Part shown: positions 44,552 through 62,623 of the stretch, one piece after another
Layout of the letters: every line of letters starts with the position of its first letter
Numbering within the stretch: position 1 is the first letter of the stretch
DNA from: an uncultured Candidatus Saccharibacteria bacterium
GTDB lineage: Bacteria > Patescibacteriota > Saccharimonadia > Saccharimonadales > Saccharimonadaceae
Length of the DNA: 64,000 nucleotides
Direction of reading: 5' to 3'
Assembly: GCA_947306745.1 (NCBI GenBank)
Contig: CAMZHH010000001.1
Coordinates: 1,000-64,999 of the forward strand
The notes under the pieces: generated by a model
Seen by the model: only the letters and a program-made list of their open reading frames with translations
What the model was told of the DNA's origin: nothing
Database searches by the model: none
Position numbers and translations under genes: made by a program

Positions 44552-44953
44552 ATGAAAAACATCATCAAAACTGCGAGCAGAGTAATGACCGGAGCAGCCG
44601 CCACCGTCACTATTCTTGCTGGTCGCGTTATGGCAACTGTTGGAAATTATGAAAACCCTGCTCAGGCTGGCGCTGAAGCCGCTCGTGCAAATGGCATGCC
44701 GGCCGAATTAGTTGGCGTTAATGGCGTTTTCACTAAGATTACCAATACGGTTCTTTATGCCGTTGGCATCATTTCCGTTATTATGCTTATTTACGGCGGT
44801 TTACGTTATGTAGTATCCGGTGGCGACAGCAAGAAAGTTACCGATGCAAAAAACACCATCATGTACGCTATTATTGGCCTCATCATTGCAATCCTTGCAT
44901 ACGCTATCGTTAACTTCGTCATCAGCGCCGTTGGTGGCGGTACCACCGTCTAA
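44552..44953 (+). CDS. VirB2/TrbC-like T4SS pilin-like protein, paralog 1
   Basis: 133 aa with an N-terminal signal-like segment and a C-terminal two-helix hydrophobic hairpin. The loop motif GGLRYVVSGGDSKKVTDAKNTIMYAIIGLII...IVNFV is shared with the six genes at 46338-49193. Confidence 0.7.
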   Translation: MKNIIKTASRVMTGAAATVTILAGRVMATVGNYENPAQAGAEAARANGMPAELVGVNGVFTKITNTVLYAVGIISVIMLIYGGLRYVVSGGDSKKVTDAKNTIMYAIIGLIIAILAYAIVNFVISAVGGGTTV

Positions 44954-44955
44954 AC

Positions 44956-45660
44956 TTATCCACTTTTTGCAATTATCATTGCGCCAACTCTAGTTATCTC
45001 TCGCTCGCAAAATCTTCGTGCAGCCTCAAGCATGCTACTTCCAGTAGTTCAAACATCATCTACTAAAATGTAGTACTTATCACAGCTTATATCTCCTTTT
45101 AAGGTATAAGCCGTTTTTGCTTGCTCTTTACGTTTATCCGCATCAGCACCAACTTGTGTCGCATTATTACCACGTACCAATAGCCGAGCGCATTCTACAC
45201 GCTCTAGGCGCGCTAAGCGCCGCACTAGCAGTCATGTATGATCAAAACCTCTTTCGCGTATGTGCTTGCTAATTGTCGGCAGGGGAACTAAAACGGCATT
45301 TTCTGGGAGCGATACGCATCGTGCTACCATTTCAGATATTATTTCGCCGCATGACCGTACAGAATTGTATTTGTAATTATTCACTAACTCCTTTAGTACA
45401 CCAATCCTTTTTCCTAAATGGAATTGCCATTTAAAGGGAAGAGGGCAGTTTAGGCATTCATTATTTCACAACAATTCGCCACACGACAAACATCTTTCCA
45501 CATGTGCCGATGTGATGTATTTTTTACAACATTCACATAGAATTCCACCATATTTTCCACAGGATAGACAGGGTTGAGGGCAAAAAATCTCACCCAAATG
45601 CCAAAATATTGTATTTTTCACAACAAAAACTCCGTTTTTCTTGATTTTAAGAGTAAACAT
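44956..45660 (-). pseudogene. comF: comF (ComFC-type amidophosphoribosyltransferase-like competence gene) with three in-frame TGA codons
   Basis: The 235-codon frame has no frameshift. It has an N-terminal CxxC zinc-finger pattern, LVPLPTISKHIRERGFDHT and the PRT motif YYILVDDV*TTGSS. TGA codons are at 45466-45468, 45232-45234 and 45049-45051, and the terminal stop is TAA at 44956-44958. Confidence 0.75.
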
Positions 45661-45708
45661 CCATATAATAAAGCTTAAGAGTGTAATTAGTGGAGGAAAA
45701 AAATTATT

Positions 45709-46224
45709 ATGGCTCGCAAACAAGACGAAATGAGCTTAGACGATGAGCTCACTGCTGCCTTCCTCGACGAGAGCAGCGAACCTGGTTTAGCAGAGGAGGA
45801 ACCGGTGGAAACTCCAGCTAGCGCTCCAGTCGCTACGGTCGAAGAAGAAACCTATATCGAAGAAGATGGCGACGGTTGGGATGATGTCGATGACAACGTT
45901 CCTGGTCAGCTTGCAGTAGATGTCTACGAAACTGCCGATAAATTAGTTATTAAAGCTCGTACTGCCGGTATCGAACGCAAAGATCTCGATGTTTCTATTT
46001 CTGATAACATCCTTACTATTTCTGGTGTTCTTAATGGTGGCGAAGACGACAAGGCTACCCAATGGCACATTCAAGAGTGCTACTGGGGTGAATTCAGCCG
46101 TACTATCGCTTTGCCAGTACAAGTTAAAGAAGATGGCGTTGAAGCCGTCCTCAAAGATGGTGTTCTTACTATTTCCTTCGAAAAGGAAAAGGTTGAAGCT
46201 CCAAAGCGCATCACCATTAACTAA
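45709..46224 (+). CDS. Hsp20/alpha-crystallin family small heat-shock protein
   Basis: 171 aa with a GGAGG RBS, an acidic N-terminus and an alpha-crystallin domain (LAVDVYETADKLVIKARTAGIERKDLDVSI...DGVLTISFEK). Confidence 0.9.
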   Translation: MARKQDEMSLDDELTAAFLDESSEPGLAEEEPVETPASAPVATVEEETYIEEDGDGWDDVDDNVPGQLAVDVYETADKLVIKARTAGIERKDLDVSISDNILTISGVLNGGEDDKATQWHIQECYWGEFSRTIALPVQVKEDGVEAVLKDGVLTISFEKEKVEAPKRITIN

Positions 46225-46337: not shown

Positions 46338-46706
46338 TTAAGCGCCAAGCTGAGTTAATACGAAGTTCGTAATAGCAAAGGCGAGGAGAACCACGATCAA
46401 ACCAATGATACCGTAAAGAATAGTGTCTTTACCTTTCTTTACTTTAGATGCATCACCTTGGGAAGTAGCATAGCTAACACCACCGAGAATAATCATAATA
46501 ACGGCAACCATACCGACTACTACATATACAGCGTTAAGGATTAGCTGAATTTGCGATTCGAGAGTAACGTTTTTATCAGTATTTGGGTTTACGCTATCGA
46601 GACCAGTCTTAGCTTTACCGGCCGCAGCAAACGTAGAAACAGCTGGAAGAGTAGCGCTAAAGACTGTAGCTGCACATCCTTTTGCGATAGTCTTAATTTT
46701 ATTCAT
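46338..46706 (-). CDS. VirB2/TrbC-like pilin-like protein, paralog 2
   Basis: 122 aa from the ATG after the AAGGAG RBS (the ORF track starts 11 codons upstream). It has a signal peptide and the C-terminal motif IILGGVSYATSQGDASKVKKGKDTILYGIIGL. Confidence 0.75.
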   Translation of the reverse strand: MNKIKTIAKGCAATVFSATLPAVSTFAAAGKAKTGLDSVNPNTDKNVTLESQIQLILNAVYVVVGMVAVIMIILGGVSYATSQGDASKVKKGKDTILYGIIGLIVVLLAFAITNFVLTQLGA

Positions 46707-46763
46707 TTTATAGGTTTTCTCCTTATCTATACTTAGCATAACATAAACGCATTATTTTCGCCA

Positions 46764-46792
46764 CAAAAAGCGCCCTTTGAGGGCGCTTTCTC
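46764..46792 (-). terminator. intrinsic terminator between pilin paralogs 3 and 2
   Basis: Hairpin agcgccc-tttga-gggcgct with T5 on the minus strand. Confidence 0.7.
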
Positions 46793-46805
46793 TTCTATGA
46801 TTCTA

Positions 46806-47312
46806 TTACGCAGCGATAGCTTGGAGTACGAAGTTGACAATTGCAAATGCAAGAATTGCAACTACGAGACCAATGATACCGTAAAGAATGGTATCTTTGC
46901 CTTTCTTGACCTTAGAAGCATCACCTTGGGAAGTAGCATAGCTAACACCACCGAGAATAATCATTACAACGGCAACCATACCAATGACGAAGATTACAGC
47001 GTTAATAATAGTCTGAACCATCGTGTTAAGGTCGTTACCATTACAGCTTTCTGGGTTAGAAGCAAGCGAACCTGCTTTTGCACAGTCAGCAGTACTTTTA
47101 CCGTAAATAGTAGTGACGGTAGCTTTTGAGCCCGTACCTTCCTTCACGGTCGTACATTTGATAGTGAAGGTCTTATCTTGCTTTGCGGAAAGGTTTGCAT
47201 ACTCACCCTTACCGAGACAATCCTTTACGGCAGCCATAGAAGGTGCTGCAATAATAAGCACTGCAAATACGGAGAGTGCCGCAATTTCAAATGCTTTTTT
47301 AAGTTTATTCAT
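46806..47312 (-). CDS. VirB2/TrbC-like pilin-like protein, paralog 3 (Cys-containing variable domain)
   Basis: 168 aa with a GAAGGAG RBS and a signal peptide. Its C-terminal motif is identical to paralog 2 over most of its length. Confidence 0.75.
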   Translation of the reverse strand: MNKLKKAFEIAALSVFAVLIIAAPSMAAVKDCLGKGEYANLSAKQDKTFTIKCTTVKEGTGSKATVTTIYGKSTADCAKAGSLASNPESCNGNDLNTMVQTIINAVIFVIGMVAVVMIILGGVSYATSQGDASKVKKGKDTILYGIIGLVVAILAFAIVNFVLQAIAA

Positions 47313-47390
47313 GTTTTCTCCTTCTTTTATAATTTTCGAAAAACCTTAACCTTATTTTAACATAAAATAATTATTTCAATACCACTATGT

Positions 47391-47702
47391 CTAAATCGTC
47401 CCCTGTAATGCTCTAATTACGAAGTTCACAATCATGAACGCAAGTAAACAAATAACTAAACCAATTACGCCAGCGATAATGGCGTCTTTACCTTTCTTTG
47501 CTTTTCCTGGATCGCCTTGAGAAGTCGTTAATTGAACACCACCGATAATAATCGCAATTACTGCAATTACCGCAAAGAAACCAGTAACAAAATTAATAAT
47601 CGTGCCTACAGAAGACTGCAAATTGCCACTTGCACCAGTACCGCCTTGCGAGGTAGTTACCTGATCTTTAATACTTGCACCAAATACTTGAATAATATTC
47701 AT
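47391..47702 (-). CDS. VirB2/TrbC-like pilin-like protein, paralog 4 (short, no obvious signal peptide)
   Basis: 103 aa with the motif IIGGVQLTTSQGDPGKAKKGKDAIIAGVIGLVI...IVNFV. Its ATG overlaps the upstream stop (TAATG). Confidence 0.7.
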   Translation of the reverse strand: MNIIQVFGASIKDQVTTSQGGTGASGNLQSSVGTIINFVTGFFAVIAVIAIIIGGVQLTTSQGDPGKAKKGKDAIIAGVIGLVICLLAFMIVNFVIRALQGTI

Positions 47703-48076
47703 TAGCCGACTGCCCTCAAAATAAAGTTAACAATTGCGTACGCTAAAATAGCTACAATTAAGCCGATAATAGCGTAGAGAATAGTATCTTTTGCTGATTT
47801 AACTTTGCCGGGATCGCCTTGCGAGGTCATATATTTTACGCCACCGATAATAATTACAATTACCGCGATGATACCCATCCAAATAAAGACAGTGCTCAAG
47901 ATATTTTTAACATGCCCCTGCAAATCTGCCTCTGTGCCACCACCGCAAAGCGTTTGATAGTTTGGCAAGTTTTTAGCCTCAGCACTATTACAAATGTCAT
48001 CAACTGCAAATGCCGAAGTAGTTCCAATCGTAATAATCGCCACTAAGGCTACTAATACCGCTAATATTCTTTTCAC
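47702..48076 (-). CDS. VirB2/TrbC-like pilin-like protein, paralog 5
   Basis: 124 aa with a signal peptide and the motif IIGGVKYMTSQGDPGKVKSAKDTILYAIIGLIV...IVNF. Its GTG start overlaps the upstream TAG by 1 nt. Confidence 0.7.
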   Translation of the reverse strand: MKRILAVLVALVAIITIGTTSAFAVDDICNSAEAKNLPNYQTLCGGGTEADLQGHVKNILSTVFIWMGIIAVIVIIIGGVKYMTSQGDPGKVKSAKDTILYAIIGLIVAILAYAIVNFILRAVG

Positions 48077-48729
48077 TACAATGCTCCTAACACAGTATTA
48101 ACAATTGCGATGGATAGAATAACAATCAATAAACCGATTGAAGCATACATAATAGTATTCTTCGCTTTCGATACTTTGCCAGGATCGCCAGTACTGGTTG
48201 CATAATAAATACCACCGATAATAATCATCGCAACCGCTACAATCGCCGCCCAAGTAAAGGCGTGGTTAAATACGTTTACAAATATATTCTTTGCACCGGC
48301 TTCACCAAGAATGCCTGTAATCGTCTTTGAAATTGTGGATGCTAAAACGGTAATTACTAAGCCAATCATGGCATTACGAATCGTGGTTTTACCCTTAGCT
48401 GCCTTCGCTGGTTCACCTTGGGAGAACATATATAAATAACCACCCCAAATCACCATCAAAATCGCAAGATAACCTACGACACCCACCACGTCACCGACAA
48501 TATTTAATACAATTGTCCAAATCGACACGGTAATTTTATCTTCGCTCTTCCAGTTGCTATCCTCAAGCAGACAAGAGCCGGATCCAGACTTGTACCATGG
48601 AGTTAGACCCATGAAATCAGCCATCGAACCGCAGTCTGCAGCGTAAGTATTTGTAGCCAATACGCCACTAAAGCTCAACGCTAATACTGCGAAGAGGGAA
48701 GCGAATAGCAAATATATCTTCTTTCTCAT
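48076..48729 (-). CDS. tandem (two-domain) VirB2/TrbC-like pilin-like protein, paralog 6
   Basis: ~217 aa with two copies of the motif (WGGYLYMFSQGEPAKAAKGKTTIRNAMIGL and IIGGIYYATSTGDPGKVSKAKNTIMYASIGL). ATG 48729 overlaps the upstream TAA (TAATG). The ORF track offers TTG 48735. Confidence 0.7.
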   Translation of the reverse strand: MRKKIYLLFASLFAVLALSFSGVLATNTYAADCGSMADFMGLTPWYKSGSGSCLLEDSNWKSEDKITVSIWTIVLNIVGDVVGVVGYLAILMVIWGGYLYMFSQGEPAKAAKGKTTIRNAMIGLVITVLASTISKTITGILGEAGAKNIFVNVFNHAFTWAAIVAVAMIIIGGIYYATSTGDPGKVSKAKNTIMYASIGLLIVILSIAIVNTVLGAL

Positions 48730-49193
48730 TACCAAACCCTTACATTAATTACCGTTAACATGCTTGTATCAGCACCAGGCAAGATAAATCCTACCAATAC
48801 CGCCGCTAATACCCACAAAACTAGACCAATCACAATCTCAAAGATACGCTTCTTCGCTTTTTCGACCTGCGCCGCATTATCTCGGGCCGTTAGCATTGTA
48901 ATACCACAGATAATTACACCAATCGTACCAGCTACGACTACACCAGCGGTCAAAATCGTAATCACAAGCTTAATTAGGCTCATTATATCGTCACCCGAAC
49001 CATTGCACATCCATGTCAGCAATGACGCACACTCACCCTCCTCAGCGGTGTCTAATGTTTTGTCCGTCGCGGTTGGAGTATCGTCGCCCGAATCCGGATC
49101 GGCATATACACTCTGTACCGATGTTACGCCTAAGCTAAAAACCGCTAGAAATGCGGCTAATACGAGGCTAATTACTTTTCGTTTTTTCAGCAT
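48729..49193 (-). CDS. divergent VirB2/TrbC-like pilin-like protein, paralog 7 (first gene of the pilin operon)
   Basis: 154 aa with a signal peptide, a Cys pair and a looser motif (CGITMLTARDNAAQVEKAKKRIFEIVIGLVL). Confidence 0.6.
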   Translation of the reverse strand: MLKKRKVISLVLAAFLAVFSLGVTSVQSVYADPDSGDDTPTATDKTLDTAEEGECASLLTWMCNGSGDDIMSLIKLVITILTAGVVVAGTIGVIICGITMLTARDNAAQVEKAKKRIFEIVIGLVLWVLAAVLVGFILPGADTSMLTVINVRVW

Positions 49194-49389: not shown

Positions 49390-49418
49390 TTGACTAAAAT
49401 GCTTATGTGTGCTATAAT
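49390..49418 (+). promoter_or_regulatory. sigma-70-type promoter (TTGACT-17-TATAAT) for the T4SS-like operon, leaderless geometry
   Basis: TTGACT at 49390-49395, a 17-nt spacer, and TATAAT at 49413-49418. The ATG at 49428 is 9 nt downstream with no SD. Confidence 0.7.
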
Positions 49419-49427
49419 AAAAGAGTT

Positions 49428-52139
49428 ATGGGTAAGTGTGTTAAAAACATAATCTTATCTCTGTTAGCGACCGTATTTAGCCTAGTGGCGTTCTCCGGTC
49501 CAGTTTTTGCTGTAACCCCAAATACAACCGTAAACACGGTTACTTCTTTTGCTACCGTCACGCCAAATCCAACCAACCCAGACAACCCTGATGACCCAGA
49601 AAACCCAGAAGAGGAGACCACTACAGAAGAAAATCCTTCCTGTTACGATCAAGTCGGCGGTATTGGCTGGCTTATTTGTCCTGGTACCGGCTTCCTCGCC
49701 AATGTTATCGATGGCGCTTACGATGTTCTTGAGAATCTTATCAAGGTTAATCCAATCCCAACCGATGAAGAAAGCCCAATCCATGTTGTTTGGGAATATC
49801 TCCGTAACATCACCAATGTAGTATTTATTATCTTCCTCTTGATCGTCATCTATTCTCAGCTCACTGGTTTCGGTATTAATAATTACGGCATCAAGCGTGT
49901 TCTTCCGCGCATTATTATCGCCGCCATCCTCGTAAACCTTAGCTACATCGTCTGTATCTTTGCCGTAGATATTAGCAACATCATCGGCGGTGGCCTTCGT
50001 GGCGCTCTGAATGATATTCAGCAAGCCGCTCTCACTAGCGGAAAGGTTAGCGAGGTCGCAGCGAATGCCTCTGTTGCTGGCATCGTCGCTACAATTCTTG
50101 GTATTGGCACTGTCGGCACAGTAGTAGCATTCACTTTTGCTGGTGGCCTTAGCGGTATCTTATGGTTGTTGATCCCAATCGTCTTATCTGGCGCCATCGC
50201 CATTCTTTCTGCGGTCGTCACAATGGCGGCTCGTCAAGCACTCATCTTCTTACTCGTCATGGTATCGCCATTAGCATTCGTCGCTTATCTGTTACCGAAT
50301 ACAGAGAAGTGGTACAAACGCTGGCTCAATCTCTTCGCCAGTATGCTTTTCTTCTACCCAATGTTCAGCCTCCTTTACGGCGCTAGCCGCCTCGCAGGCT
50401 TAGTAATTATTACATCTGCCACTAACTGGCTCGGCGTCGTCTTGGGTATCGCTGTAGAAGTTTTGCCATTATTTATGTCAATTCCACTCATGCGCATGTC
50501 TAATACGATGCTCGGCCGTATCGACGGTCTCATCCATCGCGCAGGCGCACCAGTTCATGGTATGGCCGTCCGCCGCGCTACCGAAGGTCAAATTTTGGCC
50601 AAACAACGCCAACTTTCTTCCACTAGCCATCGTCCATCCACTCGTCTTGCTCAATATCTCGAGCAACGCCGCTTGAACCGCAAACTCGATACCGATGACG
50701 CTATCGCCACTGGCCACAAGATGCGCATGGCTAACTATAACCGTAGTATGTACGACAGCTACGGCCGTCTCACCAACCGCGGTCTTCGCCGTTACACTAA
50801 TATTCAACGTGGCATCGATGCCGATAATCTCATCACTAAGACCGCTATCGACTTCGATGAAGGATTCGGCGATGACGGTACCGATACTCGCGTCCGCACT
50901 CGCGATCTCCAGCGCATCCGCACCGTAAACTCCGCCTTAATCCAAGGCGTTGATACGGCTCAAATTCTCAAATCTCGCCAACGCGCAGTTGAGCTCGAAA
51001 ATACTCGTAGTCGCGCTGAGCGCATCCGTAGTGAAGCAGAGAATGAGCACTCCGAAATCCATCGCCAAATTACCTCCGCATTTAATATGCGCAACACGTC
51101 AAATAACCCAGCAGAGCAACGCGCAATTCAAAGCTCTATCAATGCAACACTTTCCGATGCTATTACTGATAGCCGTAAGGTTGACGCTATCGCCAAGGGT
51201 AACTACCGCGAACTCTACGACGATATGCCAGCCGGCCACGGCCCGCAAGATAAACTCGTCGAGGCATTCGGCCAGCAAGATTACAACTCCATGGCTGCCG
51301 CTATTGAAGTTATGGCTAAGCGTGGCGACTTCAAAGATATCCAAGAAACCCTCTTCGACAACTCTGGTGCCGTTGCTGATAATATTCGCATGCAGAAACA
51401 ACTTGCCGACTCGCTTATTACTCAAAAAGCCGACGACCAGATCCTCTGGGCATACGCTAAGGCTAATATGGTTCGCCGCGGTATGAACAGCGGTGGCAAG
51501 CAAATCGCACCATTTATCGATTTCAAGACCTTTATTAATGGTGGCACCATGCCAGGCGACGTCGATGCTGACGCTATAAAGACCACTTCGCTTGATAAGA
51601 TTCTCGAAGATGTTAAGGGTGCTGGCACCACCGCAACTCAGGACCGCACGGTCTTCAAGGCTATGCTCAGCTTTATGAAGAAGGGCGAACTCTCGGTTGG
51701 TACTGTTGACAATCCAAACCTCCATATCCCAATGAAGTATCTCCGCTCAGCTGCTGTATCTGGCGCTATGGATGGTGAGCAACTTGGTACACTTAACAAA
51801 TTCATCACCTTCGGCTTCGATCCAAACGCTACAACTCAAGATGCCTTCTTTACCGCTAACCAAGCCATTGTCCAGAAGAATATCGAAAGCTTCTTCAAAG
51901 ATATGGCCGCTTCACAGCTCGTTGGCATTAAGAGCTCTACCTTTAAGTCGATGAACTCCGCAATGCTCGCTATCGATCCAGCTTCCGCTGTCACTCAGCC
52001 AAACGGTTCCGTAGTCAGCCAGCACGTCCTCGACGCACTTGCTCCACAAATCGCTGCAGTCAGCAAGCAGAACTATACGGCTCGCGGTGGCATGAACCCA
52101 GAAATCCGCGGCATGCTCAATATTCCAGTCGATCGCTAA
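49428..52139 (+). CDS. VirB6/TrbL/TcpH-like polytopic T4SS membrane protein with ~520-aa soluble C-terminal domain
   Basis: 903 aa from ATG 49428 (the ORF track start 49407 lies inside the promoter). It has a signal/TM segment, an acidic Pro/Asn-rich segment, ~7 TM helices (aa ~120-390), then a long hydrophilic region. The call rests on topology and context. Confidence 0.6.
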   Translation: MGKCVKNIILSLLATVFSLVAFSGPVFAVTPNTTVNTVTSFATVTPNPTNPDNPDDPENPEEETTTEENPSCYDQVGGIGWLICPGTGFLANVIDGAYDVLENLIKVNPIPTDEESPIHVVWEYLRNITNVVFIIFLLIVIYSQLTGFGINNYGIKRVLPRIIIAAILVNLSYIVCIFAVDISNIIGGGLRGALNDIQQAALTSGKVSEVAANASVAGIVATILGIGTVGTVVAFTFAGGLSGILWLLIPIVLSGAIAILSAVVTMAARQALIFLLVMVSPLAFVAYLLPNTEKWYKRWLNLFASMLFFYPMFSLLYGASRLAGLVIITSATNWLGVVLGIAVEVLPLFMSIPLMRMSNTMLGRIDGLIHRAGAPVHGMAVRRATEGQILAKQRQLSSTSHRPSTRLAQYLEQRRLNRKLDTDDAIATGHKMRMANYNRSMYDSYGRLTNRGLRRYTNIQRGIDADNLITKTAIDFDEGFGDDGTDTRVRTRDLQRIRTVNSALIQGVDTAQILKSRQRAVELENTRSRAERIRSEAENEHSEIHRQITSAFNMRNTSNNPAEQRAIQSSINATLSDAITDSRKVDAIAKGNYRELYDDMPAGHGPQDKLVEAFGQQDYNSMAAAIEVMAKRGDFKDIQETLFDNSGAVADNIRMQKQLADSLITQKADDQILWAYAKANMVRRGMNSGGKQIAPFIDFKTFINGGTMPGDVDADAIKTTSLDKILEDVKGAGTTATQDRTVFKAMLSFMKKGELSVGTVDNPNLHIPMKYLRSAAVSGAMDGEQLGTLNKFITFGFDPNATTQDAFFTANQAIVQKNIESFFKDMAASQLVGIKSSTFKSMNSAMLAIDPASAVTQPNGSVVSQHVLDALAPQIAAVSKQNYTARGGMNPEIRGMLNIPVDR

Positions 52140-52192
52140 AATCATATATTATACTGAGCCAAAAATCATTTTGTTTATGTTAAAATGAAAGT

Positions 52193-53392: not shown

Positions 53393-53401
53393 GGAGTTAA
53401 C

Positions 53402-54271: not shown

Positions 54272-56076
54272 TGGCAAAACAACCACAACTTAGCGCCGCC
54301 GATATTGCCGCGCAAGCCCAACTTCAAGAAGAAGTTGAAATCCAGAAGGCGTTCGAAACTGGTATTACTACGCTTCGTGATCTTATTTCGCCATCTTCCA
54401 TCGAAATCCACTCCGACTATTTCCGTCTCGGTACAAAATATGGCCGCACTATTTATGTTTACGGTTACCCACGCTCACTTTATACCGGCTGGCTCAGCTC
54501 GATTATTAACATCGATGAAGTTCTCGATATTTCTATGTATATTTATCCAGTCGATACCACCGTCGTCATGAAGAACCTTCAAAAGAAGGTGACTCAGCTC
54601 GAGGCTAGCGCAAACATCAACAGTGAAAAAGGTAAGATTCGCGATCCAGAGCTCGAAGCCGCCATCTCCGATGCTGAGGAACTTCGTGATCAACTCCAGG
54701 TTGGTGCTGAGAAATTCTTCCGTTACGGTCTCTATGTAACCATCTATGCCGACTCGCTTGATGAGCTTCAGTTCGTTCAACACAAGATTGAGAATATTTT
54801 CGGTCAGCAAATGGTCTTCAGTAAAGTTGCTAGCTCGCAGCAAGAGCAGGGCATGAATACCACTATGCCGCAATGTACCGACCAATTACAGATTCGCCGT
54901 AACATGAACACGGGCGCTATTTCCACTAGCTTCCCGTTCACCTCAGCCGACCTTACTCAGGAAAAAGGCATCCTTTACGGCATTAATATGCACAACAACG
55001 GTCTTGTCATCTTCGACCGCTTCTCACTAGAAAACGCCAACATGGTCGTCTTCGCTAAGTCCGGTGCAGGTAAATCTTTCACCGTCAAGCTTGAAGCGCT
55101 TCGCTCTATGATGGTTGGTACCGAAATCTTGATTATCGACCCAGAAAACGAATATCAAAAACTCTGCGACGCTGTTGGTGGTGCATATATTCGCTTGAGC
55201 CTTAACTCTGACGTACGTATTAACCCATTCGACCTACCAAAGGTTGTCGACTCCGAAGATGCTAACGATGCACTTCGCGCTAATCTCGTTACACTCCACG
55301 GTCTTTTCCGTTTGATGCTTGGTGGCGCCGCTGGCGGTACTGCTCAGCTCACACCAAATGAGGAAGCCGATCTCGACCAAGCCTTAATCGATACTTATGC
55401 GCGTGCCGGTATTACTAACGATCCACTCACGCATACTTCCACACCGCCTACCATTATTAACTTGTTTGATACTCTACTTCATATGGGCGGCACCGGTCCA
55501 AGCCTCGCTCAGCGTCTCCGTAAATATACCACTGGTACTTTCGCTGGTATCTTCTCACAACAATCCAACATCGATATCAATAACCAGATGGTCGTCTTTA
55601 ACATTCGTGACCTCGAAGATGAACTCCGTCCAGTCGCTATGTATATCGTACTTAGCCACATTTGGAACATTACCCGTGCCAACCAAAAGAAACGCCTTCT
55701 CCTCGTAGATGAGGCCTGGCAGTTAATGAAATACGAAGACTCCGCAAACTTCCTCTTTAGCCTTGCGAAGCGTGCCCGTAAATATTATCTCGGTCTTACT
55801 ACAATTACACAGGACGTTGAGGACTTCATGTCGTCCAAGATGGGACGCGCCATCGTGGCTAACTCTTCCATGCAGCTACTTTTGAAGCAGTCCGCATCCG
55901 CCGTCGATGTCTTGTCTGACGTCTTTAAGCTCACTGATGAGGAACGCAAACGTCTATCAAACTTCCCAGTTGGTCAAGGTCTCTTCTTTGCCGGTCAAAA
56001 CCACGTCCATATTCAAATCGTGGCGTCCGAAACTGAGGAAAGCCTCATTACGACGAATCCGAACGCTCGCAAGTAA
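54271..56076 (+). CDS. virB4: VirB4-family T4SS ATPase
   Basis: 601 aa with Walker A KSGAGKSF and Walker B LLLVDEAW. The N-terminal ISPSSIEIHSDYFRLGTKYGRTIYVYGYPRSL pattern is typical of VirB4/TrbE/CagE proteins. Confidence 0.85.
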   Translation: MAKQPQLSAADIAAQAQLQEEVEIQKAFETGITTLRDLISPSSIEIHSDYFRLGTKYGRTIYVYGYPRSLYTGWLSSIINIDEVLDISMYIYPVDTTVVMKNLQKKVTQLEASANINSEKGKIRDPELEAAISDAEELRDQLQVGAEKFFRYGLYVTIYADSLDELQFVQHKIENIFGQQMVFSKVASSQQEQGMNTTMPQCTDQLQIRRNMNTGAISTSFPFTSADLTQEKGILYGINMHNNGLVIFDRFSLENANMVVFAKSGAGKSFTVKLEALRSMMVGTEILIIDPENEYQKLCDAVGGAYIRLSLNSDVRINPFDLPKVVDSEDANDALRANLVTLHGLFRLMLGGAAGGTAQLTPNEEADLDQALIDTYARAGITNDPLTHTSTPPTIINLFDTLLHMGGTGPSLAQRLRKYTTGTFAGIFSQQSNIDINNQMVVFNIRDLEDELRPVAMYIVLSHIWNITRANQKKRLLLVDEAWQLMKYEDSANFLFSLAKRARKYYLGLTTITQDVEDFMSSKMGRAIVANSSMQLLLKQSASAVDVLSDVFKLTDEERKRLSNFPVGQGLFFAGQNHVHIQIVASETEESLITTNPNARK

Positions 56077-56087
56077 TATCAAAGCAC

Positions 56088-56118
56088 TAAATCTCCCTAA
56101 AAATAGGGAGATTTTTTG
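56088..56118 (+). terminator. intrinsic terminator after virB4
   Basis: Hairpin atctccct-aaaaat-agggagat followed by T6. Confidence 0.8.
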
Positions 56119-56190
56119 TTGTAAATATTACAACATTATCCCTTAAAAAAGTTGCGTATTTCAGATAAATATTATAAAATATATACATCT

Positions 56191-59100
56191 ATGGTCTCCA
56201 CACCAAATGACGGTCGCTATCGCGGCAAACATGATCCATATAATAATATGGAAGAGGCGAGTATTCGTCCTAGCAACATCGCTCGCCAAGAGCTATCTGC
56301 CGCAGAAAAAGCCGCTACGAAAAATCCTAGCGACTCCGCCTCGTCAGGCCAAAAATCTTTTACTTCAAATCGTATTACGCGCTCACTTCAACAATCCGAA
56401 AATAACCAAAAATCCCAACTCCAGAATCAATTCCGCAACTCCGTAAGAGGGAAGAATGAGCCGAAAACTACCGGACGCACACGTTTCTTAAAGAAAGTTG
56501 CCCCACTTACCATTATTGTTGGTGTTTTGTTTGGTGGTGGTGCGTTTTTCTATGGTGCTCAATCCTTGCTTGCACCACATCTCTCCGCTTTATACACTAA
56601 TGCTACCGACTTACAGTTTACTTCCTACTCTATGCGCAACTCGCGATTAATTTCCTATATGATTAATGGCGGCGGACAAGTAAAAATTAGTGGTTTCACT
56701 ACTAAATATGCCGCTTTTTCGCCATATCTAAAAAGCCGCTTAGCCAAAAATGGTATCGAAGTTGGACATCTCGACTCGTCTGGCGCTTTTCAGTCCGGCC
56801 AAATCGGCGGCAAAACCGTTTTAAAATTCGAAGATAAAATTATCGACGCGGGTTCATTCCAAACCGAATTCGCAAATAATGCTAATTTTCGCGACGCCTA
56901 TTACCAAGCAAAGCGTGGTAGAATTGCTGGTTTCTTTGATGATTCAGCCGATTATTACTACAAGAAGAAAGGCGCTACGCGTGATATCTTTGACCAATAT
57001 AAGTCCACTGGCGATAACGATGCTGATACCGAAAAATTCGAAAGTACAGTTTCTGAACGTGTCACTGGCTCCGACGCATCCGTAAATACCGTTCGTCATG
57101 AGACTGACGAAGAAACCGGCGAAGACCATATTCGCGAAAATGGTGAAGATATCGACACCACCAGAGTTTCCGGCGACACGCCAGAGTCAAAAGCGCGCGC
57201 CATGGTAAATAATATTGCCGGTAAAGTTTCGTCAATTGGTGTACCAGTTTGTTCTGCTTTGCGTATCGCAAATATTGCCGCCGTCACAGTTTCGGCGTAT
57301 CAAATATATCAATCCATCGCGTACTTCTTAAGCCTCATGGAACCGATTAGTAAAATGATGGCCGGCGAAGGTGAAGCTTCGGCGATTAATGAAAACTTAA
57401 ACTTCCTTACAACTTCAACTTATTCAGATGTTAATTATGTAGATAGCCAAGGCAATCAACAGACTAAACAAGTTTACGGTTCACCAGTTGAATCGGCTGG
57501 CGCTAAACTTGTTATGGGTAACACTTTATCGAAAAAAGAAGATTACGAACCATATTCCTTCGATAATATTACTCGCGCCGCAACAACTATTGCAGTTTCT
57601 ACTGGCGTCACTAATACTGCCTGCGCTGGCGTTATGGCTGCTTCTGCAATTATGTCACTCTCCGCAACCGCAATTCCTGGCGGTAAACTCGCTACTTTCA
57701 TCGTTGGCGCCATTGCGCAAACTGTCGGTGGTATCGTTTTGACAGGCATTGTCGCTGCAATTGTCAGTGCGATTATTCCATATGTCGCTAAAATCTTCGC
57801 TAGCAACATTTTTGAAACCTACACTGGTATCCCAGCTGGCGAGCTATTCTCACAAGGTGCCGCCACCGCTAACTTTAATCTCGCTACACAGGGCAGTGCT
57901 TATATGCCATCTGATAAATCTGCTGTAAAAACCCAAAATCGCAACACTACTCTCGCGCTCGCCCAGGAAGCTGAGCTTGATCGTCTCCATCGTAGCCCAT
58001 TTGACGCAACGAGTCCAAACACCTTCCTCGGCTCACTACTATCCAACTTCACTTATTTATCCTCCAGTAATAATGCAATGAGCAATATTGCAAACTTCAC
58101 AAACGTAGTTGGTAAATCTATCCGTAAAATTAATACTGTTTCTGCCGCTGACGAAGAATTAACTTACATTTCCAATAACCAAGATTGTACTTTCTTACCA
58201 GGCGCCGTCTGCGATATGTATGGCTTGCCAATTCCGACTTCTGATTATTCTACCATCGACGTTTCACCAGATGATCCCAACTATATTGCAGCCATCTCTC
58301 CAAATCTCGATTCAGACGGCAAAATTAAGGAAGGCTCCGAATTAGCGAAATTTATTAACTTCTGCGGCAATCGTCAATCTCCATGGGGCGTCAAAGATGC
58401 AAATATCCTCAATGCGCTTCAAACTGATTTCGGCATTGTCGGAAACAACCTTCCAGTTGTGAATGACATTGTAGACGTTATCAATGCCGCCGAAGATGTT
58501 GCGAATGAAGGTTGGGCTACCGGTTCAGTTTGTATGAATTCCGCAGATAATCCACGTTGGGATAGTGAATTCAAATATTATCAACGCTACATTGAAGATA
58601 TGCGCATCTTATCCAGTATGGATGGTAGTAATAATACTTCCGCAAGCGCATCAGGTGGCCTTAATGATGATTTAGCTCAAAAAATTGTCGAACATTTTAA
58701 AGATTCATCCAACGACGATAAATGGACCCCATCTCTAACTAAATGGAACTGTGTTAGCCTGAGTACTTATTTCGTGCAATTATTTACAAACATTGACGGT
58801 AAATCCGCCCTAAACGGCGGCGGTAAAAAGGGATGTATCTCTTGTAGTAATGGTGTTACAGTAGCCGATGGTCTAGCCGCCTATGGCGTACCAGTCGGCA
58901 CCGAGCCTCGTCCATATTCAATTTTTAGTGTCTCCGGCCCAAGTGCCTATGCATCAGGCGAAGCAGGGCACACGGGTGTAGTATTAGCTGTTAATGGTAC
59001 TGATTTAACCATTATCGAAGCTGGTTGGGGCGCCGATGGCTATGCTGCCGTTCGCCACTACGACCTAAATCAAATGCAAGATCGCAAATTCGCTTATCTT

Positions 59101-59487
59101 GAAGATTATATGGACTGGGATGCATTATCAAAAGCTACCGGAACCAAAGTAACGAATAATATTTCATCTACCGAACCAACCACTCCAAGTAATCCAGTTC
59201 TAGCATACCTCCAAGAGTATGATGCCACTCATCCAGAAGATAATTCTTTTGAGGGGATCCTTGCACGCATTTCTGGTCAAACAAAAGACGATATCGCTAT
59301 GATGCTCGAATTCGTGGATTATAGTACAAAGATTGCTAATTATGATCCATCTACACGCTATGTTTTCGGCCAAAACGAAACGTCAGAAACGCAAATATCC
59401 TTCGAGGAAGAAAACTTACCAAATATTACTGCCGTAATTCGTAATTCCAATCGTATTTTTATCGATAAGAGGAACTACGTTTTATGA
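56191..59487 (+). CDS. large polytopic membrane protein with C-terminal CHAP peptidoglycan hydrolase domain (VirB1/PrgK/TcpG analog)
   Basis: ~1098 aa from ATG 56191, which lies 10 nt after TATAAAAT. The ORF track start 56152 overlaps the -35 region. It has TM helices at aa ~115-140 and a cluster at ~360-560. The CHAP motifs are KWNCVSLSTYFV (Cys) and GHTGVVLAV (His). Confidence 0.7.
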   Translation: MVSTPNDGRYRGKHDPYNNMEEASIRPSNIARQELSAAEKAATKNPSDSASSGQKSFTSNRITRSLQQSENNQKSQLQNQFRNSVRGKNEPKTTGRTRFLKKVAPLTIIVGVLFGGGAFFYGAQSLLAPHLSALYTNATDLQFTSYSMRNSRLISYMINGGGQVKISGFTTKYAAFSPYLKSRLAKNGIEVGHLDSSGAFQSGQIGGKTVLKFEDKIIDAGSFQTEFANNANFRDAYYQAKRGRIAGFFDDSADYYYKKKGATRDIFDQYKSTGDNDADTEKFESTVSERVTGSDASVNTVRHETDEETGEDHIRENGEDIDTTRVSGDTPESKARAMVNNIAGKVSSIGVPVCSALRIANIAAVTVSAYQIYQSIAYFLSLMEPISKMMAGEGEASAINENLNFLTTSTYSDVNYVDSQGNQQTKQVYGSPVESAGAKLVMGNTLSKKEDYEPYSFDNITRAATTIAVSTGVTNTACAGVMAASAIMSLSATAIPGGKLATFIVGAIAQTVGGIVLTGIVAAIVSAIIPYVAKIFASNIFETYTGIPAGELFSQGAATANFNLATQGSAYMPSDKSAVKTQNRNTTLALAQEAELDRLHRSPFDATSPNTFLGSLLSNFTYLSSSNNAMSNIANFTNVVGKSIRKINTVSAADEELTYISNNQDCTFLPGAVCDMYGLPIPTSDYSTIDVSPDDPNYIAAISPNLDSDGKIKEGSELAKFINFCGNRQSPWGVKDANILNALQTDFGIVGNNLPVVNDIVDVINAAEDVANEGWATGSVCMNSADNPRWDSEFKYYQRYIEDMRILSSMDGSNNTSASASGGLNDDLAQKIVEHFKDSSNDDKWTPSLTKWNCVSLSTYFVQLFTNIDGKSALNGGGKKGCISCSNGVTVADGLAAYGVPVGTEPRPYSIFSVSGPSAYASGEAGHTGVVLAVNGTDLTIIEAGWGADGYAAVRHYDLNQMQDRKFAYLEDYMDWDALSKATGTKVTNNISSTEPTTPSNPVLAYLQEYDATHPEDNSFEGILARISGQTKDDIAMMLEFVDYSTKIANYDPSTRYVFGQNETSETQISFEEENLPNITAVIRNSNRIFIDKRNYVL

Positions 59488-61688
59488 AAAAACATCTCTC
59501 TATTCGTATAGTTCAAATCATTAAATCAAGCTTCTTAATTTTGATTGCTTTGACTTTAGTAAAACCGGCTTTTGCTGTAATTCCAGATGAAAATATTCTC
59601 GATTTTTATAATCGCAACGGCATTTATTATTACAACCCAGTCGGCAATGAAGATGAATGCAACACAAGTTCAACCACTCTAGTCGGTAATGATTTAACTG
59701 AAAAAATGTGGAACTTTTTCATCCAGAACGGCTTCAATGATGCACAGACCGCAGGCATTCTTGGAAATGGCATGGCTGAATCCGGAAATCAACCGACGCG
59801 TGCTAGTAATAGTTCTTATTTTGGTCTATTTCAATGGGGTGGCGGTCGCAAAGATGCGCTTTTCGCAAAATTCCAAAAAGCCGGTTTGCTAAAATATACG
59901 TCCACCGAATATTGGGGTGTTGATGCTTATAAAAATATTCCAGAAGCTGACCTAGATAAACTCTTGCAAATCGAGCTCGAGCATACCATAGAAGAGAAGG
60001 ATCTTGACTGGCAAAATGAGATTAAAAAGACTAATAAACCAGAAGTTGCAGCTGAAATTTTCTTAGTACTATTCGAGCGCGCCGTTGGTGGTAATTCCGA
60101 AGTATTATATTACGCGCCATATGCTGGCCAGCTTTACCAGGGCACTAAAGCACGTCGCGATTTCGCCACGGAATTTTACGAAAAATATGCCGGTAAAGGC
60201 GTAAGCTCTACCGGTAGCTCGGGCAGCGTCGCACAAAATGGCGAGAAACTCACGATTATTGGCGATTCAATTACCGTAGGATCACAAGACGCACTTCAAA
60301 AGAAATTCCCAAAACTTTCTAATTCTAATATCAACGCTCGTATTAGCCGCCCATGGAGTGAAGGTATCCAAATTGCTAAAACTATGCCACTTCAAAGCAC
60401 AGTAGTATTTGCTTTAGGTACTAATTCACCAGGCTTAACTAAAGCTCAAATCCAAGAGGCTATTACCACTATTGGTACCGACAAAAAAATCGTCTTCGTT
60501 ACGAATTATGATGGTACATCCGCCTTCGATTCAAATAACCGCCTATTCCAAGAACTCGCAAAAGAAAATTCCAACATTATTATTGCAGACTGGGCTACTA
60601 CGGTCAGTAAAGAACCTAATACCTACCTTTATAGCGACCACGTACATCCAAATGCCGCCGGCGCCGAATTATTCGCTGAAACAATTTGGTCTGCCATCAA
60701 TAGTAATACGAATGATAACGGCTGTAGCGTAAATGGCGAATTTCAAGCACTCGTTTTAGGCTATGCATGGCCAGAATATCATCCAGCACCATGGCACGAT
60801 CGTATGCCAGCTTACGCCGAAGCCGTAACGCAATCTATTAGCGAAGGCCGCTACGTAGGTGGTTCCGTTGCTGGTGTTCCAGGTATTGACTGTGGCGGTT
60901 TCGTAACTATTCTTGTACAAAATTCCGGTCTAGAACCGAACTATAATGACGGAGGCGGCGGCACTGATACGCAGGAAGCCTGGGTAAAGGCGCATAACTG
61001 GACGTTAATTAATGCTAATGCCGGCACTCGCGTCGACACGAGTCTATTACAACCGGGCGATGTTGCGTTTTCTAGCGGTCACACTTTTATTTATGTTGGC
61101 GAGATTGAAGGCTTCGGCTCCGTAATCGCATCAGCCTCATATTCCACCCATGGTGCCGGACGCGCCCCAATGGCTGGTAAAGAAGATTTACAATTCGGCA
61201 ATGGCGCCATTGTACGCTGGTATCGTAATCCAGACTTCCATCCAGCCGAAACCACTAATGCGCAGGCAATGGTAGCCGGCGGTAATGTTTCAAATACTGC
61301 TCCGAGTGGCTCAAATCTTATTAGCGACCATCACATCACATTCTATAGCGCCGCCGCAGAAGAAAATGGCGGTTACGCCGGCCGCAATGCAAGCGAAAAA
61401 TATAATAACGGTTACCTCGCTCCAGGCCAGGCTGCTAGCGACTCGTTGCCACTTGGTACAGTCGTATATGTCCAAACACAAGCTAGCGGGGAAGCATCTT
61501 ACGCTCATGGTAAGTATTTCCTAATTACCGATCGTGGCGCAGGTTCTGGAAATCTTGATATTTATCACGATGTCGCAAAGCCATCTGATAATAATTATCC
61601 ACCGTACGGCTCAAGTAATTCCGCCAAAATCTATAAAGTTGCAGAAAACGTTTCATGGCAAACATTTAAAGCTAAATACGGGTGGTAA
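59484..61688 (+). CDS. secreted four-module cell-wall hydrolase (tail-lysozyme-like + SGNH/GDSL + NlpC/P60-like + 3D/RlpA-like)
   Basis: 734 aa with a signal peptide. The modules are marked by TAGILGNGMAESGN...GLFQWGGGRKDAL, GDSITVG...DHVHPN, DCGGFV...GHTFIYVG, and the C-terminal LPLGTVVYV...FLITDRGAG..LDIY. The ATG overlaps the upstream TGA (ATGA). Confidence 0.7.
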   Translation: MKKHLSIRIVQIIKSSFLILIALTLVKPAFAVIPDENILDFYNRNGIYYYNPVGNEDECNTSSTTLVGNDLTEKMWNFFIQNGFNDAQTAGILGNGMAESGNQPTRASNSSYFGLFQWGGGRKDALFAKFQKAGLLKYTSTEYWGVDAYKNIPEADLDKLLQIELEHTIEEKDLDWQNEIKKTNKPEVAAEIFLVLFERAVGGNSEVLYYAPYAGQLYQGTKARRDFATEFYEKYAGKGVSSTGSSGSVAQNGEKLTIIGDSITVGSQDALQKKFPKLSNSNINARISRPWSEGIQIAKTMPLQSTVVFALGTNSPGLTKAQIQEAITTIGTDKKIVFVTNYDGTSAFDSNNRLFQELAKENSNIIIADWATTVSKEPNTYLYSDHVHPNAAGAELFAETIWSAINSNTNDNGCSVNGEFQALVLGYAWPEYHPAPWHDRMPAYAEAVTQSISEGRYVGGSVAGVPGIDCGGFVTILVQNSGLEPNYNDGGGGTDTQEAWVKAHNWTLINANAGTRVDTSLLQPGDVAFSSGHTFIYVGEIEGFGSVIASASYSTHGAGRAPMAGKEDLQFGNGAIVRWYRNPDFHPAETTNAQAMVAGGNVSNTAPSGSNLISDHHITFYSAAAEENGGYAGRNASEKYNNGYLAPGQAASDSLPLGTVVYVQTQASGEASYAHGKYFLITDRGAGSGNLDIYHDVAKPSDNNYPPYGSSNSAKIYKVAENVSWQTFKAKYGW

Positions 61689-61690
61689 AA

Positions 61691-62623
61691 ATGGATAAGA
61701 TTCAGAAAAAAGCAAAAATCTTTTGGAATAACCTTGATCAGAAAAAACGCATTATCCTTATTGCGGCTGTTGCGCTTTTTATCTTTATAATTATTTATTC
61801 TGTCGCAACTTTAATATTTCGTTCCGGCAAAATTGAAACCACTGTCAAATTTGCACCATATAAATCAACAATTACTTTAAATGATGCAAAAATATCTAAC
61901 AATACTACTATTTGGCTCGAACCTGGCACATATAATCTCAAAGTAGAATTTGAACATTTTGAATCATTAGAACGCCAAATAACCATAGATAAGGATCATC
62001 ATTATATTGTTGGAATTCTAAACTCGAGCGACGAGCAGGGCGTTGAGTATTATAATAAACATAAAGAAGAATTTGCAGAGACTGAAGGTATTGTTGGCCG
62101 TTTTCTAAACGAAGAAGGTCTTGCAATAAAGAAAAAATATCCAATTTTAAATTATCTTCCAATTAATAATTCGCTTTATTCTATAGGCTACGATTATACC
62201 GACGAAATGGTGCCGATTATTTCTGTTAAAACTCAACCAAAATACCTCGATGCGGCTGTCGCAAAATTAAAAACACTCAAAAATGTCGACCTCACCGCAT
62301 ATCAAATTAACTTTACACCAGCTAATCCATTCGCCATTTATAACGACATTACCGCCGACGAGCCTTTAAATGTAATTAAAAAAGCATTTAAAGATATCGA
62401 CAGTTACTATATCCTGGAAGGCCAATATATCGGCGGTGAATACTTTACTACACAAATCTACACGTACGATTACGATTCAGATTTATCTTTTGCACACTAT
62501 CGCGCACTATTACACAAAGATGGGGATAAATGGAAACTGGTTTCCGCTCCGCAACCATTATTAACGACTGAAAATACCCCAAATACCGAAAAATCTATCC
62601 TCGATTCTGCAAATTCATTTTAA
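61691..62623 (+). CDS. bitopic membrane protein, candidate VirB8/TcpC-type T4SS component (topology only)
   Basis: ~310 aa with one N-terminal TM segment (IILIAAVALFIFIIIYSVATLIF) followed by a beta-rich extracytoplasmic region. It is the last gene of the operon. GTG 61682 is an alternative start. Confidence 0.5.
   Translation: MDKIQKKAKIFWNNLDQKKRIILIAAVALFIFIIIYSVATLIFRSGKIETTVKFAPYKSTITLNDAKISNNTTIWLEPGTYNLKVEFEHFESLERQITIDKDHHYIVGILNSSDEQGVEYYNKHKEEFAETEGIVGRFLNEEGLAIKKKYPILNYLPINNSLYSIGYDYTDEMVPIISVKTQPKYLDAAVAKLKTLKNVDLTAYQINFTPANPFAIYNDITADEPLNVIKKAFKDIDSYYILEGQYIGGEYFTTQIYTYDYDSDLSFAHYRALLHKDGDKWKLVSAPQPLLTTENTPNTEKSILDSANSF

Follow-up and report, generated by a model that had tools for sequence, protein, structure and literature searches.

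The closest described relative of the locus analyzed here, which spans positions 44552-62623 of a 64-kb stretch of DNA from an uncultured Candidatus Saccharibacteria bacterium (the whole stretch is called the window below), is a type IV secretion system (T4SS) of Southlakia epibionticum ML1 (Se ML1). Wang et al. (2023, Cell; PMC10633639) reported an "apparent T4SS (SEML1_0006-0019)" in this organism, likened it to Gram-positive conjugative systems, noted a series of essential predicted pilins, recognized no coupling or relaxase proteins, and suggested protein export or another role. According to the supplementary tables of that study, the genes run in the order dnaN, recF, a hypothetical gene, PEGA, a 644-amino-acid (aa) lysozyme, a 1114-aa peptidase, VirB4, a 294-aa open reading frame (ORF), PrgI, two VirB6-like genes flanking one for an NTF2-like protein, six PF18895 pilins, Hsp20, a comFC-like gene, and tRNA-Ser (SEML1_0022). 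Transposon sequencing in Se ML1 classed nearly all of the SEML1_0004-0022 counterparts as essential, while comEC is dispensable there (PMC10633639). Across 3,035 Patescibacteria genomes, Quinonero-Coronel et al. (2025; PMC12102498) described a distinct VirB4 clade related to the MPF-FATA class, accompanied by TrsD, PrgI, VirB6, and arrays of 2-11 VirB2-like pilin genes, with relaxases nearly absent and the locus near dnaA/dnaN. A 2025 review gives the same T4SS features and offers a pilus conduit as speculation.

The window is the mirror image of the Se ML1 order and is syntenic, gene for gene, with SEML1_0004-0022 (Table 1). Order and orientation are shared, with tRNA-Ser, the comFC-like gene, Hsp20, and the pilins at one end and recF-dnaN(-dnaA) at the other, and both clusters are devoid of a relaxase or a type IV coupling protein (T4CP). 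By position, the 1111-aa protein corresponds to SEML1_0007 (1114 aa, essential), the 734-aa protein to SEML1_0006, and the PEGA protein to SEML1_0004/0005 (essential). The features of the surveyed clade are also present: TrsD-like and PrgI genes lie directly upstream of virB4, an array of mutually divergent PF18895 pilin genes is near virB4, recF-dnaN is adjacent, and neither a relaxase nor a T4CP was detected among the ORFs scanned, which comprised nearly all those of at least 150 aa in the window, including 30 ORFs upstream of the locus. The locus is orthologous to SEML1_0004-0019. Taking these comparisons together with the conservation analysis below, we consider it likely that 44552-62623 encodes a chromosomally fixed, vertically inherited, non-conjugative Saccharibacteria T4SS with a pilin array, belonging to the "Patescibacteria clade" and descended from a monoderm MPF-FATA lineage. 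Published accounts from 2023 to 2025 already cover the system itself, including its essential role in the epibiotic growth of Se; the window provides another ortholog. An earlier note on this DNA, made from the sequence alone, had left room for a novel architecture, but arrays of pilins, a missing relaxase, and a position near dnaA/dnaN had already been published (PMC10633639, PMC12102498).

The two loci are not identical. Se ML1 has two VirB6-like genes (SEML1_0011 and SEML1_0013) where the window has one, and its NTF2-like protein with a TAT signal (SEML1_0012) has no counterpart in the window. Six pilin genes in Se ML1 compare with seven genes and eight domains here, one of the pilins lying beyond Hsp20. 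The secreted hydrolase of Se ML1 combines two lysozyme-like domains with a cysteine proteinase, whereas that of the window combines lysozyme, SGNH, and NlpC/P60 modules, and two genes (SEML1_0004 and SEML1_0005) stand in place of the single 313-aa PEGA protein. The comFC-like frame is interrupted by TGA codons in the window, unlike in Se ML1. Finally, Se ML1 is an oral organism, and the window belongs to a gut or rumen Saccharibacterium of the Nanosyncoccaceae type.

Gene order and conservation across related loci

Relatives of VirB4 were confirmed in at least 581 stretches of genomes representing GTDB species, and the best 80 of these (L001-L080) are referred to here as the related loci. Their VirB4 proteins are 84-99% identical to that of the window, and nearly all are assigned to Saccharibacteria (Nanosyncoccaceae/Nanosyncoccus) from gut or rumen, the few exceptions having a different taxon label or none. 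Synteny among them extends over the first pilin, the comFC-like gene (in some), Hsp20, the pilin array, and the VirB6-like, PrgI, TrsD-like, and VirB4 genes. In a more distant saccharibacterial locus (L081), whose VirB6-like protein is 39% identical to that of the window, the arrangement is kept from groEL to recF. Gene order, which the earlier note had proposed to check in sister genomes, is therefore retained in the related loci, in L081, and in Se ML1.

The proteins encoded in this conserved order differ widely in how fast they diverge. Median identity to the window protein across the related loci was 87% for VirB4 and 72% for the TrsD-like protein, compared with 58% for dnaN and 56% for recF, and fell to 39% for the VirB6-like protein, 31-65% for the pilins, and ∼35% for the hydrolases. 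Judged from these identities, the VirB4 motor is more constrained than the neighboring replication genes recF and dnaN, and the predicted exposed parts diverge fast. An almost frozen ATPase paired with fast-diverging exposed parts fits what might be expected of a host-facing interface. Linkage to the replication genes was more variable: in 35 of the 55 loci with enough downstream sequence, recF lay 2.2-7.8 kb past virB4. The point at which synteny breaks in the other 20 corresponds to the junction that carries a terminator-like hairpin in the window, and in one such locus (L036) genes for DnaJ and RNase Y directly follow virB4.

The setting of the locus is that of a chromosome rather than of an island. 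The elements of a T4SS-like gene set that the earlier note had listed between tRNA-Ser(GCU) and recF-dnaN were all present where it placed them, although its list had left out the Hsp20 gene and the comFC-like frame inside the interval. It had also described the locus as adjoining core replication genes and lying outside any obvious island, and this holds: recF-dnaN is adjacent, GC content shows no island-like step, GC skew on the + strand is negative across the whole window, and the remaining 44 kb carry housekeeping genes (dnaE, valS, tsaD, groEL, Mur ligases, an ABC/FtsX transporter, and LicD) with a few unknowns. The reported absence of DNA-processing genes was likewise borne out: the ORFs scanned in the 64-kb window gave no match to a relaxase, VirD4-type coupling protein, VirB11, or integrase family. 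Among the proteins of the locus, Walker A motifs were found only in VirB4 and recF, apart from a chance match in one pilin loop. A scan of the window with Rfam returned only four tRNAs.

Table 1. Coordinates of the locus and its boundaries within the window
Feature	Position	Strand	Basis or remark
tRNA-Ser(GCU)	44332-44424	-	ARAGORN and Rfam; conserved left boundary marker
Pilin 1, VirB2-like (PF18895), apart from main array	44552-44953	+	Pfam
comFC-like frame with three in-frame TGA codons	44956-45660	-	Conceptual translation aligned to related loci
Hsp20/alpha-crystallin small heat shock protein	45709-46224	+	PF00011, 68 bits
Pilin array, six genes with seven PF18895 domains	46338-49193	-	Pfam gathering score
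Members of the array	46338-46739, 46806-47312, 47391-47702, 47702-48076, 48076-48735 (two domains), 48729-49193	-	PF18895
VirB6/TrbL-like polytopic membrane protein, 910 aa	49407-52139	+	Topology, position, weak profile matches
PrgI/VirB3-like protein	52193-53392	+	PF12666
TrsD-like protein (putative detached VirB4 N-terminal domain), 289 aa, soluble	53402-54271	+	NCBIfam
VirB4 ATPase (motor), 601 aa	54271-56076	+	PF19044, NF045971, 4AG5
Terminator-like hairpin at VirB4/hydrolase junction	56089-56114	+	11-bp stem followed by T run
Polytopic CHAP-like cysteine peptidase protein, 1111 aa	56152-59487	+	Subthreshold CHAP, transmembrane segments
Secreted multidomain peptidoglycan hydrolase, 734 aa	59484-61688	+	Phage_lysozyme2, SGNH, NlpC/P60-like
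Bitopic PEGA-domain protein, 313 aa	61682-62623	+	PEGA, 26.8 bits versus 20.8
recF	62620-63639	-	SMC_N/AAA_23; RecF name from a protein-cluster co-member
dnaN 3' end (C terminus)	63639-63947	-	DNA_pol3_beta_3; origin-proximal right boundary

Components of the predicted apparatus

By sequence, the VirB4 assignment is solid. The protein matches PF19044 with 104 bits, carries a Walker A motif at residue 262, and exceeds the cut-off of NF045971, the model of the CD1110 family (389.6 versus 325 bits, model positions 173-732 of 752). Its best solved relative is the C-terminal domain of VirB4 from Thermoanaerobacter (4AG5, E = 3e-48), with TrwK of R388 as a remote match. Together with the taxa of the related loci, the NF045971 and 4AG5 matches point to an ATPase related to those of MPF-FATA systems residing in a Patescibacteria genome. 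The separate ORF upstream, proposed earlier to resemble a VirB4 N-terminal domain, did match only the N-terminal parts of VirB4 and TrsD models: positions 99-254 of 894 in VirB4_plasma (the Mycoplasma VirB4 model and its best NCBIfam match, E = 2e-8), 13-161 of 201 in TrsD (E = 1e-7), and 13-178 of 792 in TIGR00929. The 601-aa ORF covers positions 281-893 of the Mycoplasma VirB4 model and 238-731 of TIGR00929. Because the 289-aa and 601-aa ORFs cover complementary parts of these models, together they tile a full-length VirB4, and by this measure the pair represents a VirB4 split of the TrsD/TrsE type. Relatives of the TrsD-like protein carry PF26593 (TraC-like). Its AlphaFold2 model (pLDDT 41.8, from an alignment of 26 sequences at 73-85% identity) was too poor for a fold search, and its identity therefore rests on the NCBIfam matches.

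The PrgI/VirB3-like protein that the earlier note had named scored above the gathering threshold of PF12666 (45.8 bits versus 27, residues 5-90). An N-terminal transmembrane hairpin (residues 22-68) is followed by a long tail rich in proline and acidic residues, and alignments with the related loci frequently cover no more than roughly the N-terminal half. The VirB6-like protein has a signal peptide, ∼6-7 transmembrane segments within residues 130-364, and a hydrophilic tail of ∼550 aa. Translation probably begins at the ATG at 49428 and yields 903 aa, the length of the representative of its 99%-identical cluster; the family comprises 14,126 representative clusters. A divergent intergenic region of 214 bp parts the pilin array from this gene. 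The best sigma-70-like site of the region (49390-49418; TTGACT-17-TATAAT with extended TG, 11 of 12 matches, by consensus match only) ends 10 nt before ATG 49428, the start used by related proteins, so the leader of the VirB6-like gene would be very short or absent. Promoter-like sites overall were not more frequent than in shuffled sequence (36 versus 40).

All seven predicted pilin genes, with eight VirB2/TrbC-like domains in total, reached the gathering score of PF18895 (T4SS_pilin), as the earlier note had anticipated, and a hidden Markov model made from the window domains recovered exactly eight domains in the window. Each pilin consists of a leader and two hydrophobic helices that form a hairpin, split by a conserved loop of the form GG-x-x-Y-x-T-S-Q-G-D-P-x-K-V-x-K-A-K. 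Core-domain identity between pilins ranges from 27 to 76%. All seven also matched NF045849, the NCBIfam family of the pilin-like Mbov_0395 of a Mycoplasma integrative and conjugative element (ICE), with scores of 39.6-61.7 bits in five of the seven genes (cut-off 40; four above and one just below). Pilin 1, which lies apart from the array, has two transmembrane helices, scores 44.4 bits on PF18895 (gathering score 26.6) and 30.7 bits on NF045849, and was detected, by best tblastn match, in 66 of the 80 related loci. Pilin domains numbered 4-8 in 62 related loci (mode, 5), placing the window at the top of the range. Within the array, the adjacent genes 46338-46739 and 46806-47312 form the closest pair: their C-terminal halves are nearly identical (76% amino-acid identity), and their DNA shows 83% identity across 196 nt, including ∼60 nt that match almost perfectly, which suggests that this part of the array was recently duplicated or underwent gene conversion. 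The two genes are separated by a palindromic terminator-like hairpin (46767-46789).

Two large proteins downstream of virB4 would supply wall hydrolysis. The 1111-aa protein has ∼4-5 transmembrane segments (at 115-136, 362-380, and 490-554), consistent with the polytopic CHAP hydrolase described earlier, although its CHAP match is below threshold (22.7 bits, gathering score 26); it is predicted to play a wall-hydrolase role like that of VirB1 or PrgK. The 734-aa protein had been read as a secreted hydrolase of four modules. Its signal peptide, its phage-tail-type lysozyme domain (Phage_lysozyme2, 70.5 bits, above gathering score), and its SGNH module, which matches the OatA-type domains 5UFY/5UG1 (E = 1e-8; GDSL_2 below threshold), were recovered, whereas the NlpC/P60 match is weak (17.1 bits versus 23) and the fourth module of that reading is putative. 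The domain content of both proteins thus places predicted peptidoglycan-cleaving domains of the VirB1 type inside the T4SS cluster, and the SGNH module would suit an enzyme facing O-acetylated peptidoglycan.

The 313-aa protein, previously put forward as a bitopic candidate analog of VirB8, is indeed bitopic (one transmembrane segment at 19-51), but its AlphaFold2 model (pLDDT 92.6) matched transthyretin-like/PEGA sandwiches in Foldseek (E from 3e-3). NTF2-like folds appeared only as nonsignificant matches (E = 0.4-0.8, TM score ≤0.3), and none of the 50 matches listed was VirB8, TcpC, or TraM. The VirB8 assignment is not supported, the modeled fold being PEGA/transthyretin-like rather than the NTF2-like fold of VirB8.

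Two further genes share the interval with these components. The comFC-like frame contains in-frame TGA codons at 45466-45468, 45232-45234, and 45049-45051, ends with TAA, and has no frameshift; translated conceptually, it can be aligned to the comFC-like genes of ∼50 related loci and of L081. The orthologous frame has one or two in-frame stops in eight close relatives (L002, L003, L005, L006, L007, L009, L012, and L015) and in the distant L081, at differing positions and with TGA in 10 of 11 cases, and is intact in more than 40 more distant species. Genome-wide recoding of UGA was rejected, given that TGA terminates three confidently called genes (of 46 in the window) and that in-frame TGA codons are absent from every other real gene there. 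The TGA codons could reflect repeated nonsense decay or tolerated read-through of UGA. In Se ML1, the comFC-like gene in the same place (SEML1_0021) is non-essential. From its position, the frame is a syntenic neighbor of the locus and only a candidate member of the machine. The Hsp20 gene within the pilin region keeps its place in L081 and in 54 of the 80 related loci, as it does in Se ML1, where its positional counterpart SEML1_0020 was classed as essential; it may encode a chaperone for the hydrophobic pilins or be just a conserved neighbor.

The 13-kb core operon (49407-62623, + strand) converges on recF-dnaN (62620-63947, - strand). If the origin lies beyond dnaN, the core operon is transcribed head-on to replication and the pilin array co-directionally; Se ML1, whose orthologs were classed as essential, shows the same relative orientation of core operon and recF-dnaN. 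Elsewhere in the window, an ORF of 1727 aa and adjacent ORFs of 383 and 404 aa (14139-19322, - strand; 26211-28577, + strand) had no significant match in Pfam or NCBIfam, one match to DUF5881 being below threshold. These may be further lineage-specific surface proteins.

Relatives on Gram-positive and other replicons

The earlier note had called the mix of components unusual, on the grounds that Gram-positive systems normally lack VirB2-like pilins. The combination of a Gram-positive-style core with a pilin array was confirmed, but its rarity is weaker than stated, and the premise is contradicted both by a December 2025 preprint (ter Beek et al.), which reports VirB2-like pilins in almost all Gram-positive conjugative plasmids, including pCF10 (PrgF), and by two plasmid cassettes found here. 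A tblastn search with one pilin against PLSDB plasmids gave no match because the query is short and hydrophobic; the pilins were instead located through the neighborhoods of the nearest plasmid-borne VirB4 relatives, at 37-38% identity. On a megaplasmid of Pontibacillus sp. ALD_SL1 (L082; NZ_CP062975.1, 351-361 kb), the gene order is that of the window: two PF18895 pilins, a TrbL-like protein of 779 aa, a TraL/PrgI-like protein, a TrsD-like protein of 274 aa (29% identical to that of the window, E = 5e-24), a VirB4 of the CD1110 family (37% identical), and a hydrolase of 1050 aa with M23 and NlpC/P60 domains. As in the window, no T4CP or relaxase is annotated within 12 kb. This cassette differs in its host (Bacillota) and replicon (a large secondary one), in the flagellar and chemotaxis genes that flank it, in having only two pilins, and in lacking a PEGA protein and Hsp20. 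On a plasmid of Embleya (Actinomycetota; L083, NZ_CP108778.1), a homologous pilin ORF without an entry in the PLSDB gene table (7595-8125 of that locus) is followed by VirB6-like, PrgI, VirB4, T4CP, relaxase-like, and NlpC/P60 genes. Since cassettes of the same order, with pilins, occur on replicons of Bacillota and Actinomycetota, the pilins probably came with the monoderm donor system and were not co-opted from diderm T4SSs, a question that the 2025 survey had left open.

Members of the MPF-FATA class (Trs of pGO1/pSK41, Prg/Pcf of pCF10, and CTn/CD1110-type elements) share PrgI and a CD1110-family VirB4 with the window. The split TrsD-like N-terminal domain recurs in pGO1, and the role of the large multidomain wall hydrolase PrgK/TrsG has a counterpart here; the pCF10 system includes PrgF, PrgH, PrgI, PrgJ, and PrgK. 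In contrast, T4CP and relaxase, residence on mobile elements, a single pilin gene, and VirB8-like subunits of NTF2 fold mark the conjugative MPF-FATA systems, and none of these was found in the window. The Mycoplasma ICE (Mbov_0395 pilin-like, Mbov_0397 VirB4) shares the NF045849 pilin family, and its VirB4 model is matched at the N terminus by the TrsD-like ORF and over the rest by the ATPase ORF of the window. However, its VirB4 is one polypeptide, it is conjugative with a VirD4 homolog, and it has no hydrolases because its host is wall-less. The Ced system of the Sulfolobales (CedA/A1/A2/B) resembles the window in its VirB2-like pilus, VirB6-like channel, and VirB4-like ATPase, in lacking a relaxase and T4CP, and in being chromosomal and serving the cell rather than a mobile element. 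It differs in being archaeal, in importing DNA after UV damage, in not being essential, and in the remote similarity of CedB (E = 6e-13).

Alternative explanations and biological meaning

In the mechanism that we propose, PrgI/VirB3 and the TrsD-like domain would hold a VirB4 hexamer at the membrane, and this hexamer would dock on the VirB6-like channel, pull VirB2-like pilins from the membrane, and polymerize them into a short pilus or conduit. Peptidoglycan would be cut by the CHAP protein in the membrane and by the secreted lysozyme/SGNH/NlpC-P60 enzyme so that the structure crosses the wall of the epibiont, and the two hydrolases would probably also open or breach the wall of the host. With no relaxase or dedicated coupling protein, such a machine would serve host contact and the exchange of macromolecules (protein export or uptake of host material) and not conjugation; its fast-evolving parts (the pilins, the VirB6 tail, and the hydrolases) would face the host and determine specificity. 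A host-contact machine of an epibiotic bacterium of the candidate phyla radiation, as opposed to a conjugation system, was also what the earlier note had favored, in agreement with the comparisons made here and with the published interpretation (PMC10633639, PMC12102498).

One alternative is that the locus is the transfer module of an ICE, perhaps a decayed one, with its relaxase, coupling protein, and integrase encoded beyond the window. The Embleya cassette, in which genes for a T4CP and a relaxase-like protein directly follow virB4, and the tRNA gene flanking the locus, a classic integration site, are in keeping with this idea. However, no such genes were detected among the ORFs scanned in the 64 kb, the tRNA-Ser, Hsp20, groEL, and recF-dnaN flanks are syntenic in distant genomes and in Se ML1, and VirB4 is better conserved than recF and dnaN, the opposite of what a decaying element would show. 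Moreover, no compositional island is visible, and the Se counterpart is essential where a distant T4CP homolog in Se is not (PMC10633639, PMC12102498). Rejected on synteny and composition, an ICE or genomic island is largely refuted and in our view scarcely credible. A DNA-import machine like archaeal Ced or ComB of H. pylori, feeding a nucleotide-auxotrophic cell, would account for the VirB2-like pilus, VirB6-like channel, VirB4 motor, and missing relaxase and T4CP, which together equal the Ced parts list (PMC9905601), as well as for the comFC-like gene as a conserved neighbor, and weak matches of VirB4 to CedB (E = 6e-13) and CedD also favor it. Among T4SS-type DNA-uptake subunits, only similarity to the CedB and CedD ATPases was found, and it is weak (48.3 bits against a cut-off of 700), far below the score of VirB4 on the conjugative family NF045971. 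Competence in Se ML1 requires ComEC, yet a comEC deletion mutant is viable whereas the T4SS is essential, and the comFC-like frame of the window is itself interrupted by three TGA codons; DNA import is thus very unlikely as the purpose of the machine.

The locus might instead build an organelle for attachment or wall remodeling only, in which an adhesive pilin fiber and hydrolases for division or for feeding on the host wall operate with no translocation. Many divergent pilin paralogs recall the adhesion-type Trw T4SS of Bartonella (PMC12102498; see also PMC2883598), the hydrolases are found apart from the core in 20 of the 55 loci, and no coupling protein that could recruit substrates was found among the scanned ORFs. 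Such an organelle would leave unexplained the very strong constraint on the inner-membrane translocon set of VirB3, VirB4, and VirB6; Saccharibacteria already possess type IV pili implicated in adhesion, and some T4SSs without a T4CP (Ptl and Brucella VirB) still secrete proteins (PMC12102498). We therefore regard a purely adhesive role as unlikely.

Several observations nonetheless weigh against a non-conjugative T4SS complete in itself and tied to the origin. The VirB6 assignment is the weakest of the core calls. Topology, position, and published structural matches of the Se ML1 counterparts favor it, as the earlier note had proposed, but profile matches are weak: the window protein itself had no Pfam match, its orthologs carry PF19590 (TrbL_3) as a weak precomputed match, and PF04610 (TrbL) matched 4 of 39 distant relatives (best E = 0.0012). 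The top 150 matches of a family profile against representatives were all strong family members, with no bridge to classical TrbL, and searches of PDB sequences with the family (one with a single sequence and two with profiles) returned no VirB6 or TrwI. A VirB8-like component was not identified among the 50 Foldseek matches listed for the PEGA model. Because 20 of 55 loci lack, next to virB4, the half of the locus running from the hydrolases through PEGA to recF, origin proximity and hydrolase linkage are common but not obligatory. A coupling protein or relaxase could sit elsewhere in the genome, beyond the window; VirD4-like genes lie far from virB4 in most Patescibacteria genomes (PMC12102498), a point that also favors an ICE. 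For this organism, pilus, substrate, and transport direction are all predictions.

A more specific version of the host-contact machine is an essential conduit for feeding: with the two hydrolases driving it through the wall of the host, a VirB2-type pilus would import host macromolecules or metabolites and would not export DNA or effectors. We hold this to be doubtful, if conceivable. To our knowledge, a feeding direction and purpose is not known for any bacterial T4SS, and the idea appears only as speculation in the 2025 review.

The significance of the system is already in the literature. To this, the present analysis adds that VirB4 exceeds the adjacent recF and dnaN in conservation while the pilins, VirB6 tail, and hydrolases diverge fast; that about one in three related species has the hydrolase-recF half detached from the rest; that homologous pilin-bearing cassettes occur in Bacillota and Actinomycetota; that the PEGA protein lacks a VirB8 fold; and that the comFC-like frame is odd. 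No other T4SS has been reported as essential for the growth of the cell that carries it, and this system probably operates at the interface between epibiont and host in a huge and largely uncultured radiation.

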